In this document: positions 24,460 through 42,886 of the stretch, piece by piece | Layout of the letters: each line of letters starts with the position of its first letter | How positions within the stretch are numbered: position 1 is the stretch's first letter | Assembly (NCBI GenBank): GCA_009784085.1 | Contig: WRCJ01000002.1 | Span: 1 to 51,936, forward strand | Origin: Oscillospiraceae bacterium | GTDB lineage: Bacteria > Bacillota > Clostridia > Oscillospirales > UBA929 | Reading direction: 5' to 3' | DNA: 51,936 nucleotides | Notes under the pieces: generated by a model | The model's input: only the letters and a program-made list of their open reading frames with translations | The model's database searches: none | Told to the model about the DNA's origin: nothing | Position numbers and translations under genes: made by a program

Positions 24460-24537
24460 ACTCTTCACCCTCACAGACCGCCGCGCCCCGCAAAGGTAAA
24501 AAATAGGCAACAACGGTTACAATTTGGTTACAATACC

Positions 24538-24566
24538 ATCATACCATTTCTTTTTCCCTTCGTCAA
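24538..24566 (-). promoter_or_regulatory. Sigma-70 promoter with extended -10 for the M23 peptidase gene
   Basis: Minus strand: TTGACG (24561-24566), 17 nt, TGgTATGAT (-10 at 24538-24543). Confidence 0.55.
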
Positions 24567-24642
24567 GCTTTTTTATCACCGGTTGACACCTATCATACTC
24601 ATTTGCAACATACCCATTTTCACATTGACGTTGCATCCCTAT

Positions 24643-25545
24643 CTATACTTGATTATCCGTGTTCTCTTTATCGGCAAGTATCTTGCTCAATTTTGCCTTT
24701 TCATCAAGCACTTTCAACTTTTTCACGCTGCTGTATGACAGCAATGCCGCCATTTGCGAACGGGCAAGCCGATTCAATTCTAAAAGCCGCTCGGACTGCG
24801 GCATACCGTTATTGATATACAGAGCGTTGACGTTTTCAAGATTGGCGAGTACGAGCAATTGCTCTATCGTCGCATAATCGCGAATATTACCTTTTTTATC
24901 GACATTGTCTTTTCGCCATTCTGCAGCGGTCATTCCGAATAGAGCAGTATTTAATAGATCCGCTTCGTCCGCGTAAATGAACGAACGCTGGCGTGGCGTG
25001 AGTTCCGGTGGAATAAGATTGTCGCGGATAGCATCCGTGTGTATACGGTAATTGACTTTGGCGAGAATCCGTTTTACGTTCCAATCAAGGGATATGCGGC
25101 TGTTCTCGTCAGCTTTCAGACGCTGATAGTCTTTGATTATATAGAGCTCAAACTCTGCGGAAATCCACGACGCGAATTTGAACGCGATATCTTTATGCGC
25201 GTATACACCGCCGCCGCGTCCGGCTTTCACGATAATGCCCAAGGCATTTGTCGCTGTCACCCACTTTGTCGGCGATAATGTAAAAGCGTTCGCCCCGGCT
25301 TCATGCAAAAACCTATCGAATTCGATAGGTTTAAATTCGGCGTTGTTCAGTTTTTCCCATATTCCGAGGTACTCTATCGTGTTGCGAACACGCATCCAGT
25401 TATTTACAACGATAAACGGCTCTTCGACATTTTTGTATTTTGCGATATCCGTCAAGCTGATGTAGTCGTCGGACGTACCTTTTGAAAGCACGGCAATTTT
25501 GGTGCCTTTCGCTGTTATCGTGCCTTTGAAAGTTTTGTCTACCAC
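24643..25545 (-). CDS. KilA-N domain DNA-binding protein
   Basis: DYISLTDIAKYKN...VVNNWMRVRNTIEYLGIWEKLNN..FKPIEFD...FTLSPTKW...HKDIAFKFASWISAEFELYIIKDYQRLK is the KilA-N signature. Preferred start is the GTG at 25545 with GGAGGA 8 nt upstream. The ATG at 25626 is the alternative. Confidence 0.8.
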   Translation of the reverse strand: MVDKTFKGTITAKGTKIAVLSKGTSDDYISLTDIAKYKNVEEPFIVVNNWMRVRNTIEYLGIWEKLNNAEFKPIEFDRFLHEAGANAFTLSPTKWVTATNALGIIVKAGRGGGVYAHKDIAFKFASWISAEFELYIIKDYQRLKADENSRISLDWNVKRILAKVNYRIHTDAIRDNLIPPELTPRQRSFIYADEADLLNTALFGMTAAEWRKDNVDKKGNIRDYATIEQLLVLANLENVNALYINNGMPQSERLLELNRLARSQMAALLSYSSVKKLKVLDEKAKLSKILADKENTDNQV

Positions 25546-25632
25546 GGGATCATCCTCCGAAATCGAATAATAATATTTGATATTTTTGTTGCTTTGCGTT
25601 TTCTGTTCGCGACAAAAATGTGTCACGTGTTC

Positions 25633-26247
25633 TTATGCACCATTAACGCGCATGGAAAGCGTTTCCGCCACCGCGAAAAGCAACGCCTCGTTATCTTGAT
25701 ACCACGCAGTATCACCGCCATGATTGATGGAAAAGAAAAACACGCCACTATCCGTGATATTGACAAAGTCGGTATACGTTTCGGTCTTCCGGCAATAGCC
25801 TTTACCGCCATCGGCAAAACTGAAATCCTCAACCGAGAATCCCTCGTCATTTTTCAGCAAGTCCCGGTACTCATCCTCCGAAATGTCCTGTCCCAAAAAG
25901 ACTTGGTGCCCCCACATATGTATTTCGCCATGCGAACAATCAATCACCAATATAGTTTCATCTTCGTCTTCATAATCGGGCTCTGTGTGATAGCTCCACG
26001 CGGACGGTATCTTCAGATAAAACTCAACCAGTTCGTCGGTCGCTGTCTTGTCCAACACGGGCAGATTGGGTTCAAGCGTGTCTGCCGGCGCGGGCGATGT
26101 TTCCGGCGCGGGCGATTCCCCGCCAGACGGGGGCGGGGGGTCGGTTTGGGTGCCGGGGTCAGTTACCTGCTGAATCTCAACGCTACAGCCGGAGATCACC
26201 GCAAGCGTAAGACATGCGATAATCGCAAATGTAAATATCCTCTTCAT
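25633..26247 (-). CDS. Lipoprotein of unknown function
   Basis: Signal peptide with lipobox (LAVISGC), a Pro/Thr/Ser-rich linker, and a ~150-aa acidic globular domain. AGGAG lies immediately after the mazF stop; the gap is 12 nt. Confidence 0.7.
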   Translation of the reverse strand: MKRIFTFAIIACLTLAVISGCSVEIQQVTDPGTQTDPPPPSGGESPAPETSPAPADTLEPNLPVLDKTATDELVEFYLKIPSAWSYHTEPDYEDEDETILVIDCSHGEIHMWGHQVFLGQDISEDEYRDLLKNDEGFSVEDFSFADGGKGYCRKTETYTDFVNITDSGVFFFSINHGGDTAWYQDNEALLFAVAETLSMRVNGA

Positions 26248-26259
26248 AAAACCACTCCT

Positions 26260-26589
26260 TTAATAAAATGAACAAATCATGTCGATTACCCTATCCAAAA
26301 CATCATCTGAAACATACTCGACATAATCAGCATTTCTGGCAATCACGTCAAGCGCACGAGTTTGATCGCATAGGATCACACCGGTTGTCTTTGTATCGTT
26401 TCCCAGTGGCATGTGAAATACATGGGCCTTATCTGTATTTGTTATGGGACAGACCATGGCCAATTTGCAATGTTGATTAAAAACGTTGTTGCTTACCACC
26501 AAGGCCGGTCGCCGTCCCCTTTGCTCGAATCCTTTTTGAGGATCAAAATCCATCATTATGATGTCACCTTGATTGGGGGTGTACCTCAT
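26260..26589 (-). CDS. mazF: MazF/PemK-family endoribonuclease toxin
   Basis: MRYTPNQGDIIMMDFDPQKGFEQRGRRPALVVSN...VCPITN is the PemK fold signature. Its ATG overlaps the mazE TAA by 1 nt. Confidence 0.85.
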   Translation of the reverse strand: MRYTPNQGDIIMMDFDPQKGFEQRGRRPALVVSNNVFNQHCKLAMVCPITNTDKAHVFHMPLGNDTKTTGVILCDQTRALDVIARNADYVEYVSDDVLDRVIDMICSFY

Positions 26590-26879
26590 TACCAAAACTC
26601 CCTCCCAACTGATGCCCCCCAATCGTACGCAACCGGGGAGTATAATGTGTCATCAGCAAGGATTTCATCAATTGGTCTCCCATAAAACTCCTCAAGTCTT
26701 TGCTCGAGACTCTTCTTTGACCGACGCTTACGTTGATTTTTTCTGATAACGATAGAATCATTATCAACATCTGCCATAATCTCAACTTGATCATTTTCCT
26801 GGAGCATCAGGCTCTCTAAAACTGCTTTAGGTAGGCGAACTGCCTGGCTGTTGCCCCATTTCTGAATTGTCGTTATCAT
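26589..26879 (-). CDS. mazE: MazE / AbrB-SpoVT-family antitoxin
   Basis: IQKWGNSQAVRLPKAVLESL is the swapped-hairpin AbrB/MazE motif; located upstream of mazF. Confidence 0.85.
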   Translation of the reverse strand: MITTIQKWGNSQAVRLPKAVLESLMLQENDQVEIMADVDNDSIVIRKNQRKRRSKKSLEQRLEEFYGRPIDEILADDTLYSPVAYDWGASVGREFW

Positions 26880-26899
26880 ACGCTACCACCTCGCATCAT

Positions 26900-26928
26900 A
26901 GTATATACTGCGTATCTACAATTGTCAA
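26900..26928 (-). promoter_or_regulatory. Consensus-like sigma-70 promoter of the mazEF-lipoprotein operon
   Basis: Minus strand: TTGACA (26923-26928), 17 nt, TATACT (26900-26905). The -10 sits inside the palindrome AGTATATACT, a possible MazE operator. GGTGG RBS precedes the mazE ATG. Confidence 0.65.
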
Positions 26929-27004
26929 GCGCAAGTCGGCTCGGATTGTGGTTAACCTGTGATAATGTCAGGATGTAAATTAATCTGAGAAAATGGTGTT
27001 AAAT

Positions 27005-27370
27005 TCAGGTTTTTCCATTCGTCAAGTTTTTTTCGAATCGCTGTGACGCCATGCCGGACTTTGAAAATGAAATATTCTCAATTATACGTAGAGCGTGAAC
27101 ATCATTGTCACTTAAACCAAGATCACGAAGGTGTTTTATTAATGCTATTCTTTCGCTAATTGCTTTGATGTAATTTTCATTACGTAGCCTTTCGTTATCG
27201 ATCTCCATTCTTTCATTGACTAATTTCTGTTGTTGAATCTCTTCGCTTGTTTTAACTAAACCAAGCTCTGCTGCTTTGGCTTCTGCCTCTGCTTTTCGCT
27301 TGGTAATCGCTTTACCGATCATCACACGTTCTATTACGTCTTTTGGATCAAAGCCTACTGATACCCCCAC
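27005..27370 (-). CDS. Hypothetical 121-aa coiled-coil protein (GTG start)
   Basis: GGAGAGGAGAG lies 6 nt upstream of the GTG at 27370. The frame is uninterrupted in AT-rich DNA, where stops are frequent. Charged heptad-like middle (KAEAEAKAAELG...QQQKLVNERMEIDNERLRNEN). No family recognised. Confidence 0.5.
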   Translation of the reverse strand: MGVSVGFDPKDVIERVMIGKAITKRKAEAEAKAAELGLVKTSEEIQQQKLVNERMEIDNERLRNENYIKAISERIALIKHLRDLGLSDNDVHALRIIENISFSKSGMASQRFEKNLTNGKT

Positions 27371-27686
27371 AAGTATCTCTCCTCTCCTAACCAGTGATGA
27401 TATTATGTAAAAAAGTACACCGTGCTGATCAAATTGGACTTTTTATATTTCCGAGTTATCAGGTGTCCTTTTCTGGCGCGTATTGTCCAGTAAGAAATAA
27501 TTACCTATTTCATATATCGAGAAGATCCATCCTCCAATTTATCATCGTGGCATTTGGAGGGTTTGCATAAGTAGAACTTTCACAACGAATTAGACTATAT
27601 AATGCCACACATTTCAACTAGCGAGCCATGCGCGACGCGAGAAAAGTGTGTATTTCTCCGGCAAAGTCGCTAACAAAGGAGACGTT

Positions 27687-27861
27687 CTATCTGTATTCCT
27701 GCAACTCCCTGAGTATAAGTTGTCGAAAAAAAGATGAAAAAAGTTGAGTTTTCGCCGATAGGAGTGGTTGAACTTTGGGGAAGTGGGTGTAGAAAGCAGA
27801 GACTTTGTATTCTTCGTTAAATGTCCTGGTCTCTCGCTTACTTGTGTTTCCCATTGCTCAT
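27687..27861 (-). pseudogene. Possible decayed IS3-family orfA (HTH_Tnp_1-like) relic
   Basis: MSNGKHK, then a stop; the adjacent frame gives KRETRTFNEEYKVSAF...LILRELQEYR. This resembles the KRR.F..EFK..AV ... L..W...Y.E layout of IS3 OrfA over about the right length. The middle HTH region is not recognisable. Confidence 0.25.
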
Positions 27862-27951
27862 ACCTTGCCTTTCTTATCGTGACAAAAAATGTGTCAAGTT
27901 TTGTTATACATCATACACCATCGATTTGCCGAAAGAAGAATCGACGACGCG

Positions 27952-27992
27952 CTCAAATGAAAAGCGGGACGCTCTCATTTGAGCATCCCGCT
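27952..27992 (-). terminator. Terminator-like hairpin after the 53-aa ORF, interleaved with a second complementary pair
   Basis: Minus strand: AGCGGGA-N16-TCCCGCT followed by TTTCATTT. CTCAAATGA/TCATTTGAG is interleaved with it in A-B-A'-B' order. Confidence 0.4.
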
Positions 27993-28022
27993 TCGCCGTC
28001 AGGCGTATACCACTTATTGGAT

Positions 28023-28184
28023 TTAGTTTTTGACAGTTCTGAGTGGCTTGTTTAACTTTTCAGAAAGCCACGCAAGCGCCTTATCAGATTCTTTGCGGCG
28101 TTCTTCTTTAGTCATGGTCATGCGGCGCAGAGAGTTATCGTCCCGAATTTTTCTAATCTCAGTCATGGATTCACTAACCTTCAT
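28023..28184 (-). CDS. 53-aa charged helical ORF translationally coupled to the 3' end of the PIN gene (candidate cognate antitoxin/partner)
   Basis: Below the 60-aa cut-off of the track. GGAGGT lies 8 nt upstream of the ATG at 28184, which is inside the last codons of the PIN gene. Sequence: MKVSESMTEIRKIRDDNSLRRMTMTKEERRKESDKALAWLSEKLNKPLRTVKN. A terminator-like hairpin follows. Confidence 0.5.
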   Translation of the reverse strand: MKVSESMTEIRKIRDDNSLRRMTMTKEERRKESDKALAWLSEKLNKPLRTVKN

Positions 28185-28662
28185 TTTCATCTACCTCCTC
28201 TAACAGCATAGTCGGTGAAATTATGCTGATTTCCTTGTAATGGTTCACAGCGTTTACAATTTTTACTTTGTTAATCGTCCGATAATTCACCAAGTGTTTG
28301 AAATTCCACGATATAATAATATCGCAGTTCATAACAACGGCGCAGGCCATATGCAAACAATCGTCCACACTTTTTTTGGTAAGCACTCCGTTGTAAAGAT
28401 ACTCATAGGCGAGGTTGTTTATTTCGTCGGTTTCCTCTAATACTTGAAAATCAATCTCGCCTAGCCTTTCAGCCATTTTTGACCGTTTGGGTTCGGAACA
28501 TTTTTGCAGTTCTTCGACTGTTATCGTCGAAATAAAGATGTCGTATTTACCGGCTTTGAAGTCATCCCAGAGCTTATTTGTGTCGTCCATTTTGTCCGGT
28601 GTATCGTCAGCAAACAAATGGCTCACAACGGATGTGTCAAGATATATTTTCAATTTTTTCAT
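28174..28662 (-). CDS. PIN-domain protein (VapC-like ribonuclease toxin candidate)
   Basis: IYLDTSVVSHL (first acidic residue), ...TVEEL..., DCLHMACAVVMNCDIIISWNFKH (distal acidic residues); 162 aa. Confidence 0.85.
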   Translation of the reverse strand: MKKLKIYLDTSVVSHLFADDTPDKMDDTNKLWDDFKAGKYDIFISTITVEELQKCSEPKRSKMAERLGEIDFQVLEETDEINNLAYEYLYNGVLTKKSVDDCLHMACAVVMNCDIIISWNFKHLVNYRTINKVKIVNAVNHYKEISIISPTMLLEEVDENEG

Positions 28663-28710
28663 TTTGCCTTGAACCTCCGCTTTGATTTTTCTATCTCAGC
28701 CCGAGAGGGG

Positions 28711-28842
28711 GATGACGACGGGAGTATGGATTCTGCGACTGCGCGCAGAATGACGAGGGGATGGAATGACAACGGGGAGACGACGGGGGGGGACGGGGGT
28801 ATGGATTCTCCCGGCGCGTCAGGGATGCCGCGCCCTACGGGG
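28711..28842. repeat. REP-like hairpin block, related to the insert at 11808-11982
   Basis: TATGGATTCTGCGACTGCGCGCAGAATGACGAGGGGAT (28725-28762) matches 11873-11909 except for 4 substitutions and a 1-nt indel. CCGGCGCGTCAGGGATGCCGCGCCCTACGG (28811-28840) is the reverse complement of 11913-11939 with one mismatch. Confidence 0.65.
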
Positions 28843-41530: not shown

Positions 41531-42886
41531 CTATACGTATTTCGTCGGGTTGACCGGGGAACCGCTGATACGGACCTCGAAGTGCAGATGCGGCCCCGTG
41601 GACAGCCCCGTGGATCCGACCAAGCCGACGCTTTCCCCCCGGGATACGGATTGGCCCCTAGAGACCAGGATGCGGCTCAAATGGGCATACAGCGTGGATT
41701 TCCCGCCCCCGTGGTCGACGACCACATAGTTCCCGTACCCGCTGGCATAGTTGGCGATGATGACAGTGCCCGAAGCCGCGGACACGACCTTGGAACCGCT
41801 GGGCGCCGGTATATCGATGCCGCTGTGCATCCGGTATTCTTTGAGGATGGGGTGGTACCTCATGCCATAAGAACTCGAAATCTTGCCAGACGCCGGGCAT
41901 GGCCACAAAAAGCCGCCCCCCGCGTAGTCGCCGCTATTGCTGGGCGGTGGATCGTCGTCGATGTCGTCTTCGAAATCGTCGTCGTCAATATCGCCGCCGC
42001 CCTGGCCGCCGCCGCCGCCGCCTTTGGCCCTCTCTTCTTCCCTTTTCCTGCGTTCCTCTTCCTTTCGCCTGCGCTCCTCTTCCCTCCTGCGCGCTTCCTC
42101 CTCTTCCCTGAGCCTGCGCTCTTCCTCGATACGCTGTATTTCCAGTATGATCTCGTTTTCTATCTCTTCGGTCTGCCGGTCGAACTCCTCCTCCAGCTTC
42201 CGGTAATCGTCTACCTTGGACTCGATCTCCTCGATGAGGAGCAACTGATCGGCGTACTGCGCCTCCTGCTCGGCCCGCCGCTCCGACAACGCGGCCTTGA
42301 TGGCGGATTGCTCGTCCCGGTCCCGTTGCAACGCCTTCTTCTCGGCGTCAACCTGCTCGCGCGCGAGCTTGAGTTCATCCAGCATCTTGCGGTCATACGC
42401 AATGATGTCGTTGACATCGCCCAGGCGGCCCAATAAGTCGGAGAAGCTATCGGCCTTCAGCAAGATGCCCAAGTATTGCGCGTCGCCGGCCTCTTCCATC
42501 GAGCGGATGCGCGTCCGGAAGAGTTCCATCTGGCGGGACTCTTCCCGCAATGCCTCCTCCAGGGCCGCCTGATGTTCGTCTATGGCAATCTCCAACGCCT
42601 CGATCAGGAGTTCGGCGTTTTCGATTTCCGCGCTCGTGATCTCGATCTGTTTGTCGATGGCTTCCTTCTTCTCCAAAGCCGAGGCCCGCTCGTCGGCCAG
42701 CTGGCCGATTTCCGCTTGCACCTTCACCTTCTCTTTGGCCAGCGCCTCGGCTTCTTCCCGTAGCACGTCCAGCAAAGACTCGGCGCCGGCGGGCCGGACA
42801 AAGTTGAGGATCAAACCGGCCAGCAGGGTAACAGCCAGCAAAACGGCCATTGTCATGGCAAAGATACGCACACGCTTCGAACTCAT
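41531..42886 (-). CDS. Coiled-coil M23 (LytM) peptidase, EnvC-like
   Basis: Signal/TM, a long coiled coil, a highly charged R/E then G/D block, and C-terminal HSGIDI...GSTGLSTGPHLHFEVR. AAAGGAGGT Shine-Dalgarno lies 9 nt before the ATG at 42886. Confidence 0.85.
   Translation of the reverse strand: MSSKRVRIFAMTMAVLLAVTLLAGLILNFVRPAGAESLLDVLREEAEALAKEKVKVQAEIGQLADERASALEKKEAIDKQIEITSAEIENAELLIEALEIAIDEHQAALEEALREESRQMELFRTRIRSMEEAGDAQYLGILLKADSFSDLLGRLGDVNDIIAYDRKMLDELKLAREQVDAEKKALQRDRDEQSAIKAALSERRAEQEAQYADQLLLIEEIESKVDDYRKLEEEFDRQTEEIENEIILEIQRIEEERRLREEEEARRREEERRRKEEERRKREEERAKGGGGGGQGGGDIDDDDFEDDIDDDPPPSNSGDYAGGGFLWPCPASGKISSSYGMRYHPILKEYRMHSGIDIPAPSGSKVVSAASGTVIIANYASGYGNYVVVDHGGGKSTLYAHLSRILVSRGQSVSRGESVGLVGSTGLSTGPHLHFEVRISGSPVNPTKYV

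Follow-up and report, generated by a model that had tools for sequence, protein, structure and literature searches.

Composition and gene content of the AT-rich block

The stretch of DNA analysed (the window, 51,936 nt of contig WRCJ01000002.1, Oscillospiraceae bacterium assembly GCA_009784085.1) contains an AT-rich block of about 4.1 kb. The site is intergenic, between an amidohydrolase gene and the promoter of a core G5/M23 peptidase gene, and the host is an uncultured gut-type Clostridia. Seven ORFs are present, all on the minus strand (Table 1). The G+C fraction of positions 24575–28700 is 0.435, against 0.589 in the remainder of the window, and a two-border maximum-likelihood fit places the island borders at 24492 and 28698. 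Island genes have GC3 values of 0.33–0.58, compared with 0.76–0.80 for the M23, amidohydrolase, rnc and plsX genes. Measured as tetranucleotide L1 distance, the island lies 0.517 from the rest of the window, which is above all 26 core segments of the same size (mean 0.186, maximum 0.346). The island is compositionally foreign DNA, and its modules differ in G+C (PIN 0.39, orf121 0.39, mazEF 0.42–0.44, KilA-N 0.46, lipoprotein 0.52). There are no tRNA genes in the window, and no recombinase, integrase or transposase occurs among the called genes for about 10 kb to each side of the island.

These results bear out several claims of a preliminary description of this DNA, which had noted the abrupt shift from GC-rich to AT-rich sequence and proposed these composition measures for fixing the borders, as well as the single orientation of the cargo, the M23 promoter and the absence of an integrase. 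Its readings of a PIN gene overlapped by a 53-aa ORF, a terminator-like hairpin behind that ORF, the gene order mazE-mazF-lipoprotein and a KilA-N DNA-binding protein were likewise upheld.

Table 1. Features in and beside the AT-rich block, with positions in the window
Feature	Position	Strand	Remarks
M23 promoter (core G5/M23 peptidase gene)	24538..24566	-	TTGACG-17-TATGAT + TG extension
24-bp direct repeat, left copy	24551..24574		TTTTTCCCTTCGTCAAGCTTTTTT; left edge of AT-rich DNA
KilA-N protein, 300 aa	24643..25545	-	GTG start, RBS GGAGGA; gene call in L001
Lipoprotein, 204 aa	25633..26247	-	Signal peptide with lipobox ISGC
mazF, PemK/MazF endoribonuclease toxin, 109 aa	26260..26589	-	Pfam PemK 6.2e-27
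mazE, AbrB/SpoVT-type antitoxin, 96 aa	26589..26879	-	Pfam MazE_antitoxin 1.1e-13
mazEF promoter	26900..26928	-	TTGACA-17-TATACT, 11/12 matches
121-aa ORFan, putative gene	27005..27370	-	GTG start, RBS GGAGAGGAG
24-bp direct repeat, right copy	27010..27033		22/24 identical to left copy
Non-coding spacer, ~640 bp, includes terminator	27371..28014		No protein/RNA family match
Intrinsic-terminator-like hairpin	27952..27993	-	13-bp GC-rich stem, then UUUUCAUUU (U tract)
PIN + small-ORF cassette, 686 bp	28015..28700	-	Sharp borders of DNA homology to other contigs at both coordinates
53-aa PIN partner, putative antitoxin	28023..28184	-	Overlaps PIN 3' end by 11 nt
PIN, 162 aa, VapC-like, putative ribonuclease toxin	28174..28662	-	Pfam PIN 2.5e-7, PIN_3 1.9e-6

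The PIN cassette

The PIN cassette recurs at 92%, 89% and 80% DNA identity on other contigs, in at least three unrelated contexts with unrelated flanks. Its right edge is the GC border, while on the left the homology ends 8 nt past the stop codon of the small ORF, and none of the elements carrying the PIN pair has a counterpart of the adjoining DNA. No promoter of its own was found within the cassette. The PIN protein has 682 homologues, and relatives are labelled VapC family toxin by NCBI. Its acidic residues D9, E51, D101 and D114 are invariant. Its AF2 model (pLDDT 88.6) has as top Foldseek matches the VapC toxins VapC20, VapBC1, VapBC15 and VapBC2, all with probability 1.0; by sequence, the PIN profile matched no PDB chain even at E≤1.

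The 53-aa ORF has an RBS (GAGGAGG) 9 nt upstream and no match in Pfam or NCBIfam. The dN/dS values are 0.06–0.09 for PIN and 0.07–0.08 for orf53, and a ratio of about 0.08 indicates that the latter is a real gene under purifying selection. All 18 loci examined, with 14 distinct sequences, have a small ORF 3' of PIN, which was recognised by tblastn or HMM in 12 and by eye, via a common motif, in the other 6. It is retained with PIN relatives down to 31% PIN identity, one of them on a Leptospira plasmid.

The pair is found by itself in more than 10 other contexts, beside a large serine recombinase (L091, L094-96, L106, L108), IS605 TnpB (L087), a tyrosine integrase with an ISL3 fragment (L109), a plasmid rep gene (L111) or glycogen genes (L090). 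Typically it adjoins serine recombinases of Tn4451-like/ICE elements, and it also occurs in prophage-like viral contigs. Next to a recombinase is where an addiction module would be expected to lie. The pair appears to be a VapC-like toxin-antitoxin family in which the toxin gene comes first and the partner has no curated family; PIN would be the toxin and the 53-aa protein the antitoxin. It is the sole element of the island with some novelty, and only mildly novel.

Terminator, spacer and 121-aa ORF

The hairpin (-36 kcal/mol for the whole stretch, z=-3.8) is located after the small ORF, just beyond the PIN cassette. The spacer that includes it has no homology elsewhere; protein and RNA family searches were empty and no phage or conjugation gene fragment was detectable. 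An IS3 orfA-like relic, proposed earlier for this spacer, found no support: none of the four longest stop-free six-frame segments of 27371–28022 (56, 59, 87 and 98 aa) matches a transposase family, including those of Pfam, even at E≤10.

No other island ORF has a GC3 as low as that of the 121-aa ORF (0.33). A search for its homologues returned only the ORF itself, apart from a weak match to phrog_2525 (9.5e-4). It is the one ORF of the three previously described as lacking a family for which this stands; the 53-aa ORF and the lipoprotein both have homologues.

The mazEF, lipoprotein and KilA-N genes

The mazE stop and the mazF ATG share one base (TAATG), and a palindrome, AGTATATACT, overlaps the -10 box of the mazEF promoter and is likely the mazEF operator. 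MazF is 52% identical to a Klebsiella plasmid MazF and matches NCBIfam MazF at 8e-25, and because the scores are under the NCBIfam equivalog cutoffs, the pair is to be regarded as a family member and not as the E. coli MazEF orthologue. Its sequence features mark it as a canonical mazEF pair.

Only 12 nt separate the mazF stop from the lipoprotein gene, which has an RBS (AGGAG). The protein consists of a signal peptide, a Pro-rich linker and a single 140-aa globular domain. A word-index search returned only the protein itself, and exhaustive HMMER gave 29 matches, 10 of them below 1e-10, with no Pfam domains in the homologues. The family comprises a few dozen proteins from Clostridia only, most with an additional C-terminal domain. 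The nearest homologue lies in a lipoprotein cluster that adjoins WYL and XRE/ImmA genes, without a toxin-antitoxin pair. Structure prediction and Foldseek, as proposed in the preliminary description, gave an AF2 model with pLDDT 80 (core >90), according to which this small unnamed Clostridia family has a PsbP/DcrB-like fold.

In the KilA-N protein, a KilA-N DNA-binding domain at the N terminus (Pfam KilA-N 3.6e-18) is followed by a conserved C-terminal region; the protein matches PADLOC PDC-S22 at 4.1e-129 (model positions 5-275 of 281) and phrog_2657 at 7e-58. Relatives 57–62% identical in amino acids occur in other phyla; each stands on its own in Bacteroidota, Gammaproteobacteria and viral contigs. 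Relatives also occur at the ends of two IMG/VR contigs. In the varied contexts examined the relatives are never next to mazEF or the lipoprotein gene, and no phage or plasmid record matches beyond the KilA-N gene. So far the protein can be regarded only as a candidate for anti-phage defence.

Direct repeat and relatives of the locus

A 24-bp direct repeat occurs twice in the window (chance expectation 0.00 in 100 shuffles), and homology of the flanks stops at the repeat ends. The right copy forms the final 8 codons of the 121-aa ORF. The repeat is T-rich, and the -35 box of the M23 promoter falls within the left copy. Between them, the copies bracket a 2,459-bp segment with mazE, mazF, the lipoprotein gene and the KilA-N gene, and this segment may have been inserted via the repeat. 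We know of no recombinase able to use it.

The flanking amidohydrolase has a best genome match of 62% identity, where synteny is absent, and a metagenome scan with M23 gave a single match of 39% identity; neither search found a close relative. The locus is carried by only two other metagenomes, and as each copy is 100% identical, there is no population variation at this locus. An empty or partly filled island site was found in no genome, so that how many insertions took place, and in which order, is inferred.

Origin of the block

The AT-rich block is probably a mosaic of at least three selfish or defence modules, independently acquired at one intergenic site and each working, or formerly working, on its own. 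One would be the PIN cassette, encoding a putative VapC-like ribonuclease and a translationally coupled putative antitoxin of 53 aa, stranded without recombinase or own promoter. The next would comprise the terminator, the dead DNA (about 640 bp) and the 121-aa ORFan, and the third the repeat-bracketed 2.46-kb segment with the self-promoted mazEF, the lipoprotein gene and the KilA-N/PDC-S22 gene. In the latter, MazF would act as an mRNA endoribonuclease and MazE as AbrB-type antitoxin and autorepressor, while the lipoprotein gene would be transcribed by read-through from mazF and the KilA-N/PDC-S22 gene translated separately. Co-orientation and uniform AT-richness relative to the host are also compatible with a single acquisition of an element that was a mosaic beforehand.

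A rather unlikely alternative is that the 4.1 kb are the decayed stump of one larger element (a prophage, serine-recombinase ICE or mobilisable transposon), which already bore the whole gene set, in the role of morons or stability genes, before its recombinase and core genes were lost. The common orientation, the AT-richness of the entire block, the resemblance of the dead spacer and ORFan to decay, the usual company of the PIN pair and the position of two KilA-N relatives at viral contig ends are as expected of such a remnant, but the G+C of the modules varies, PIN homology stops 8 nt past the stop codon in DNA without a counterpart, and the direct repeat encloses only the part from mazE to KilA-N. 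A remnant is also at odds with a spacer in which no fragment of phage or conjugation genes is detectable, and with phage and plasmid records that match nothing but KilA-N. That the block is instead vertically inherited, merely AT-rich native DNA of the lineage is hardly credible: just two other samples contain the organism, both with an identical block, and no empty site is known, but its tetranucleotide distance exceeds that of every core segment, GC3 falls by 0.2–0.45, the PIN cassette shares 92% DNA identity with copies in unrelated contexts, and the KilA-N protein shares about 60% identity with copies in other phyla.

Earlier it had been suggested that a defence or addiction island, perhaps an undescribed multi-gene system, lies here. 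The foreign block with VapC-like PIN, MazEF and PDC-S22-matching KilA-N cargo agrees with the former, but not as one system. It is very improbable that the PIN, 53-aa, 121-aa, mazEF, lipoprotein and KilA-N genes cooperate, even with their shared orientation, the tight packing from mazE to the lipoprotein gene (12-nt gap) and two RNase toxins next to a candidate defence gene. In a co-occurrence analysis of 111 fetched loci, PIN with its small ORF was the only pair of island-gene relatives found adjacent. Because a conserved neighbourhood is lacking, cooperation as one system is already largely refuted; the modules occur separately elsewhere. The block is also split by the terminator and non-coding DNA, mazEF has a separate promoter, orf121 is without homologue, the lipoprotein family is found without toxin-antitoxin genes, and no PADLOC multi-gene model matches in the island.

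Comparison with known systems

In Foldseek, the globular-domain model of the lipoprotein resembles PsbP, MTC28, DcrB and EagT (Mog1p-PsbP-like alpha-beta sandwich proteins, extracytoplasmic) with probability 0.87–1.0 and TM-scores of 0.35–0.49 on target length. As are DcrB and MTC28, the lipoprotein is a bacterial protein that is secreted or carries a lipid anchor. Sequence identity is only 8–14%, and the likeness in fold transfers no function.

PDC systems are candidates, inferred from their embedding in R-M, BREX or DISARM loci (Payne et al. 2024, bioRxiv 10.1101/2024.01.29.577857). The island KilA-N gene resembles PDC-S22 in its full-length HMM match and as a solitary single gene in varied contexts. 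One relative has a type I R-M methylase and S subunit as neighbours, and Qat genes lie near another, whereas the island gene is not embedded in an R-M, BREX or DISARM locus, and its product has a 22-aa C-terminal extension.

The likeness of the PIN pair to VapBC, known from sequence and predicted structure, lies in the VapC fold, the invariant acidic active-site residues and a compact, translationally coupled two-gene operon carried on mobile elements next to recombinases. Unlike VapBC, the gene order is inverted, with the partner downstream and overlapping the PIN 3' end; the partner (53–78 aa) has no DNA-binding domain of the AbrB, RHH, Phd or HTH type, and the island PIN protein exceeds classical VapC in length by about 30 aa. 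The island mazEF differs from MazEF (ChpA) in the closely following lipoprotein gene, and shares with it the antitoxin-first order, an AbrB/SpoVT-type MazE, a PemK-type MazF, the stop/start overlap and a strong promoter with a palindrome over the -10 box.

Composition and borders of the AT-rich block

The block between the M23 peptidase promoter and the amidohydrolase gene is compositionally foreign. The window has a mean GC of 0.577, with 0.435 for positions 24575-28700 versus 0.589 for the remainder, and the sliding GC profile falls from ~0.62 to 0.39-0.47 over ~24.4 to 28.7 kb. GC at third codon positions (GC3) is 0.33-0.58 in the island genes versus 0.76-0.80 in the genes for M23 peptidase, amidohydrolase, rnc and plsX. 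The tetranucleotide L1 distance between the block and the remaining window is 0.517, and same-size core segments (n=26) give a mean of 0.186 and a maximum of 0.346. A two-border likelihood fit places the limits at 24492 and 28698. GC, GC3 and tetranucleotide checks thus agree on the abrupt AT-rich block of the preliminary description, whose coordinates were correct to within a few tens of bases. The seven ORFs named there are all present, all on the minus strand, and the family names of PIN, MazE, MazF/PemK and KilA-N are backed by Pfam, NCBIfam and PHROG matches.

Features of the AT-rich block and its surroundings (window coordinates)
Feature	Position	Strand	Remarks
M23 promoter	24566-24538		TTGACG-17-TATGAT
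24-nt repeat, left copy	24551-24574		includes -35 box of M23 promoter
KilA-N gene	24643-25545	minus	300 aa, GTG start, RBS GGAGGA
30-nt imperfect repeat, first copy	25614-25643		just upstream of KilA-N
Lipoprotein gene	25633-26247	minus	own RBS
mazF	26260-26589	minus	109 aa
mazE	26589-26879	minus	96 aa
mazEF promoter	26928-26900		TTGACA-17-TATACT, 11/12 matches
121-aa ORF	27005-27370	minus	GTG start, good RBS GGAGAGGAG
24-nt repeat, right copy	27010-27033		last eight codons of 121-aa ORF
Spacer	27371-28014		~640 bp
Proposed IS3 orfA relic	27687-27854		rejected
30-nt imperfect repeat, second copy	27885-27914		in spacer
PIN cassette	28015-28700		PIN and 53-aa ORF
53-aa ORF	28023-28184	minus
PIN gene	28174-28662	minus
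G-rich block	28711-28842		between amidohydrolase stop and PIN cassette
Second M23 peptidase paralogue	41534-41896

The island is flanked by genes for a G5+M23 peptidase and an Amidohydro_2 protein (Pfam). Pfam-labelled gene calls to ~10 kb include Orn/DAP decarboxylase, Dus, an ECF sigma factor, OTCase and V-ATPase on one side, and rnc, plsX, gidA, topA, dprA and spoU on the opposite side. These are housekeeping genes only, with no recombinase within ~10 kb either way, so that the absence of an integrase, remarked on earlier, is upheld. There is no tRNA gene in the window, and the search for a direct repeat around the entire block found none, only the internal 24-bp repeat (24551-27033). The G-rich block marks the right border of the foreign DNA. 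It carries GACGGG[A/G]GTATGGATTCT twice, 75 nt apart, each copy followed by a short GC hairpin, and the window holds no further copies (2 observed; 0.17 expected by chance); it could be a host terminator or a REP-like element. The second M23 paralogue and the M23 gene beside the island share 49% identity in their C-terminal domains.

The repeat-bracketed segment

The 24-nt direct repeat TTTTTCC[C/A]TTCGTCAAG[C/T]TTTTTT occurs in two copies in the window (zero matches expected from 100 shuffles), and no homology was found past the ends of the copies. Between them lie mazE, mazF, the lipoprotein gene and the KilA-N gene. This layout is the pattern that site-specific insertion would leave, and suggests that the 2.46-kb segment arrived separately; we infer this arrival rather than observe it, because there is no empty site and no known recombinase. 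An imperfect 30-nt direct repeat (83%) that holds a TTGACA-like box was not significant in blastn-short and was dropped.

The predicted mazEF pair is canonical. MazE matches Pfam MazE_antitoxin (1.1e-13) and MazF matches PemK (6.2e-27), the mazE stop and mazF start overlap by 1 nt (TAATG), and the palindrome AGTATATACT spans the -10 box of the promoter. MazF is 52% identical to a Klebsiella plasmid MazF, and exact protein look-ups of mazF and mazE returned no record.

The lipoprotein gene begins 12 nt past mazF. The preliminary description had placed its product among three ORFs of no nameable family, and a word-indexed search did give a self-match only. It is no orphan: 29 relatives came out of an exhaustive HMMER scan, and 10 of these lie below 1e-10. 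All nine retrieved have a signal-peptide-like hydrophobic N-terminus and eight of the nine a lipobox cysteine, and most are of 290-430 aa with a second, C-terminal domain. Pfam gave no credible match for any of ten relatives scanned. The AlphaFold model (core pLDDT >90) predicts an alpha-beta sandwich fold like that of PsbP/MTC28/DcrB/EagT. The closest relative (50% identity) is encoded in a run of lipoprotein genes next to WYL and XRE/ImmA regulators, and no toxin-antitoxin pair is present there. In that locus (L092:22-3798, ena:ERZ27257304:k141_935758) it is the third, of 344 aa, of three consecutive secreted protein or lipoprotein genes (341, 515 and 344 aa) that have no Pfam matches and are followed by a WYL regulator and an XRE + ImmA/M78 pair. 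A role in superinfection exclusion was considered, and no evidence for it was found. Neither the lipoprotein nor MazF has relatives in IMG/VR, and a prophage-moron origin for these two is therefore unsupported.

The KilA-N gene starts 88 nt past the lipoprotein gene. Its product matches the Pfam domain at 3.6e-18, and over almost all of the model the PADLOC HMM of PDC-S22 (E=4.1e-129; residues 35-306 against model positions 5-275 of 281), making it a member of this candidate anti-phage family. The PDC systems are 145 candidates for phage defence, inferred from their embedding in R-M, BREX or DISARM loci (Payne et al. 2024, 10.1101/2024.01.29.577857). Genes for relatives with 57-62% amino acid identity to the island protein stand alone. 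The Parabacteroides copy lies between ybeY and a porin gene, a Xenorhabdus IncC plasmid carries one close to Qat genes and a recombinase, the Haliscomenobacter copy adjoins genes for a COR-domain protein and type I R-M, and two viral contigs each have one near an end. In no case does mazEF or the lipoprotein gene lie alongside. One homologue from a viral contig (59% identity; L101:99-914, IMGVR_UViG_3300045988_171841) has an in-frame stop codon, and is either a pseudogene or a case of stop-codon reassignment.

The PIN cassette

The PIN protein (Pfam PIN 2.5e-7, PIN_3 1.9e-6) has 682 homologues at E<=1e-3, mainly of 155-165 aa, some annotated 'type II toxin-antitoxin system VapC family toxin'. 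Residues D9, E51, D101 and D114 are invariant across 25 homologues. Its profile had no match among PDB sequences. The AlphaFold (AF2) model (pLDDT 88.6) has as top Foldseek matches in the PDB VapC20, VapBC1, VapBC15, VapBC2 and further VapC toxins, with probability 1.0 and TM-scores of 0.62-0.75 by target length. Third-best, amid these toxins, is PcrIIC1 (PDB 8wmm_G; TM-score ~0.7 by target length), a Cas9-associated accessory protein.

The 53-aa ORF, also listed earlier as an orphan, proves to have a counterpart beside PIN in every locus retrieved: a small ORF abuts or overlaps the PIN 3' end in all 18 loci checked, which took in L087-L091, L093-L096, seven IMG/VR contigs (PIN identity 35-51%) and a Leptospira interrogans plasmid (31%). 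The small ORFs have in common the motif [TL][IL][ED][DE]-I-[RH]-x-I-R. No Pfam or NCBIfam model matched the 53-aa protein, and its profile gave spurious repeat-protein matches only among PDB sequences, with no solved structure. Relative to copies that are 92% and 89% identical, PIN has dN/dS values of 0.09 and 0.06 and the small ORF values of 0.08 and 0.07; both are therefore under strong purifying selection.

DNA homology to other contigs is limited to the cassette (L093, 92%; L094-96, 89%; L087-89, 80%), ending 38 nt upstream of the PIN start and 8 nt past the small-ORF stop. What flanks the pair varies from locus to locus. L094-96 have a large serine recombinase (Resolvase + Recombinase + Zn_ribbon + DUF4368) that overlaps the start of PIN, in L091 a similar one lies directly upstream with TnpW, DUF3847 and MobA relaxase nearby, and in L106 and L108 a serine recombinase is directly downstream. 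Other neighbors are an IS605 TnpB (L087), a tyrosine integrase with an ISL3 fragment (L109), a plasmid rep gene (L111) and glycogen-metabolism genes (L090). In L093 just ~18 nt of the recombinase 3' end remain. The pair is spread over Bacillota, Spirochaetota plasmids and viral contigs, and judged by its gene neighborhoods, the distribution is that expected of a putative addiction module of mobile elements. Habitually placed against serine recombinase genes, it may stabilize Tn4451-like/ICE elements and prophages, and may itself be a discrete ~690-bp cassette able to relocate with neither repeats nor its own recombinase. No recombinase accompanies the pair in the window, and there is no promoter-like site upstream of PIN within the cassette. 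Transcription reading through from the amidohydrolase gene, across the G-rich hairpin block, would be needed to express the pair.

Terminator, spacer and 121-aa ORF

Just outside the PIN cassette is a hairpin with a 13-bp stem followed by UUUUCAUUU; the 88-nt stretch folds at -36 kcal/mol (z=-3.8). The spacer beyond it gave no family match in its long stop-free segments, and no Rfam match, tandem repeat or similarity to other fetched sequence. Rfam and tandem-repeat scans of the whole block were likewise blank, the sole sub-threshold match being FTHFS (E=0.36) inside the PIN gene. An IS3 orfA-like relic had been proposed within the spacer; neither this ORF nor the other long stop-free segments have a Pfam match at E<=10, NCBIfam and PHROG are blank, and the supposed HTH_Tnp_1/transposase homology was not detected. 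The 121-aa ORF, a candidate gene with the lowest GC3 of the block (0.33), is the one orphan that stands, having a self-match only in a word-indexed search of 5.8 billion protein clusters; the sole hint is a PHROG match with E about 1e-3.

Occurrence of the locus

Beyond the window, exact-protein look-ups place the identical island (100% DNA, same context) in just two samples, ENA ERZ27257304 and Logan SRR10512951. Both of these independent metagenome assemblies (contigs L001/L003 and L002/L004, respectively) break inside or beside mazEF, with contig ends at window positions 26462, 26735, 26307 and 26966. These breaks, at 26307-26966, suggest that those communities have either a further, nearly identical mazEF copy or strains that differ at this point. 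Looked up by exact protein, the amidohydrolase and rnc occur in one other assembly only, and there too the island is present. The closest amidohydrolase match among 185,579 species genomes has 62% identity and is from an Oscillospiraceae MAG, and none of 80 retrieved amidohydrolase loci shows synteny with rnc, plsX or M23. A scan of JGI metagenomes with M23 gave a single match at 39% identity and no close relative.

Origin of the block

The block is probably an accretion of independent addiction or defense modules at one intergenic site, rather than a single system. GC varies from 0.39 to 0.52 among its modules, which are divided by dead DNA and a terminator. The mazEF pair is served by a promoter of its own, and a repeat brackets one of the modules. 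The main rival is a single decayed mobile element, which is unlikely. That it is native DNA is very unlikely, given the composition of the block.

The preliminary description had raised the prospect of one undescribed multi-gene system. A unified novel system of this kind has very little probability: among the 111 loci fetched, no relatives of any two island genes co-occur, the PIN pair excepted. On the whole, the block is another case of toxin-antitoxin and defense genes accumulating at an intergenic site, here in an uncultured Oscillospiraceae-like host without a close sequenced relative.

Comparison with known systems

The island belongs to a known kind, of which it is an ordinary case, and calls for no conceptual change. 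Measured against genomic islands and integrative elements, it has no integrase or recombinase within ~10 kb, no tRNA gene in the window and no direct repeats around the whole block. Its mazEF resembles MazEF in that an AbrB/SpoVT-type MazE precedes a PemK/MazF-fold toxin in a single operon. Orthology to E. coli MazF and ChpB does not hold at the NCBIfam equivalog cutoffs (87 bits vs 120, and 67.9 vs 129), and the predicted MazF is a family member, not an equivalog. For those testing PDC-S22, the locus is relevant as a Clostridia case outside any R-M or BREX locus.

The single element that merits follow-up is the family of PIN and its small partner, which is large, conserved, selected and toxin-first, and for the partner of which no model has been curated. 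A search of the literature on toxin-first PIN systems did not turn up the pair; this is absence of evidence only, and weak evidence of novelty. That PIN and its partner of 53-78 aa form an undescribed toxin-first VapC-type branch of toxin-antitoxin or defense systems, tied to serine-recombinase elements and with an antitoxin lacking a known DNA-binding domain, is a tentative proposal to which we give somewhat less than an even chance. For a large PIN subfamily (at least 682 homologues), the 53-aa ORF establishes a family of partners that is conserved and under selection. The subfamily members are currently annotated 'VapC family toxin' and the partner 'hypothetical'; curating and testing the pair would correct many annotations.

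Like VapBC, the pair has a PIN fold with conserved acidic active-site residues, and is a conserved two-gene unit under selection, counted as co-transcribed from the abutting or overlapping genes. It differs in gene order, the partner lying downstream, whereas the VapBC antitoxin gene is upstream of the toxin; upstream of PIN the cassette has 38 nt only, and elsewhere the upstream gene is a recombinase, leaving no upstream antitoxin gene. The 53-aa partner also has no recognizable DNA-binding domain, in contrast to VapB, the N-terminus of which is AbrB, RHH, Phd/YefM or HTH. Because of the inverted order and the missing domain, the pair is treated as VapBC-type-like and not as a demonstrated member, a putative toxin and putative antitoxin that would work as a VapBC-type system does, and it would add to VapC a variant with inverted gene order and an antitoxin without a DNA-binding domain.
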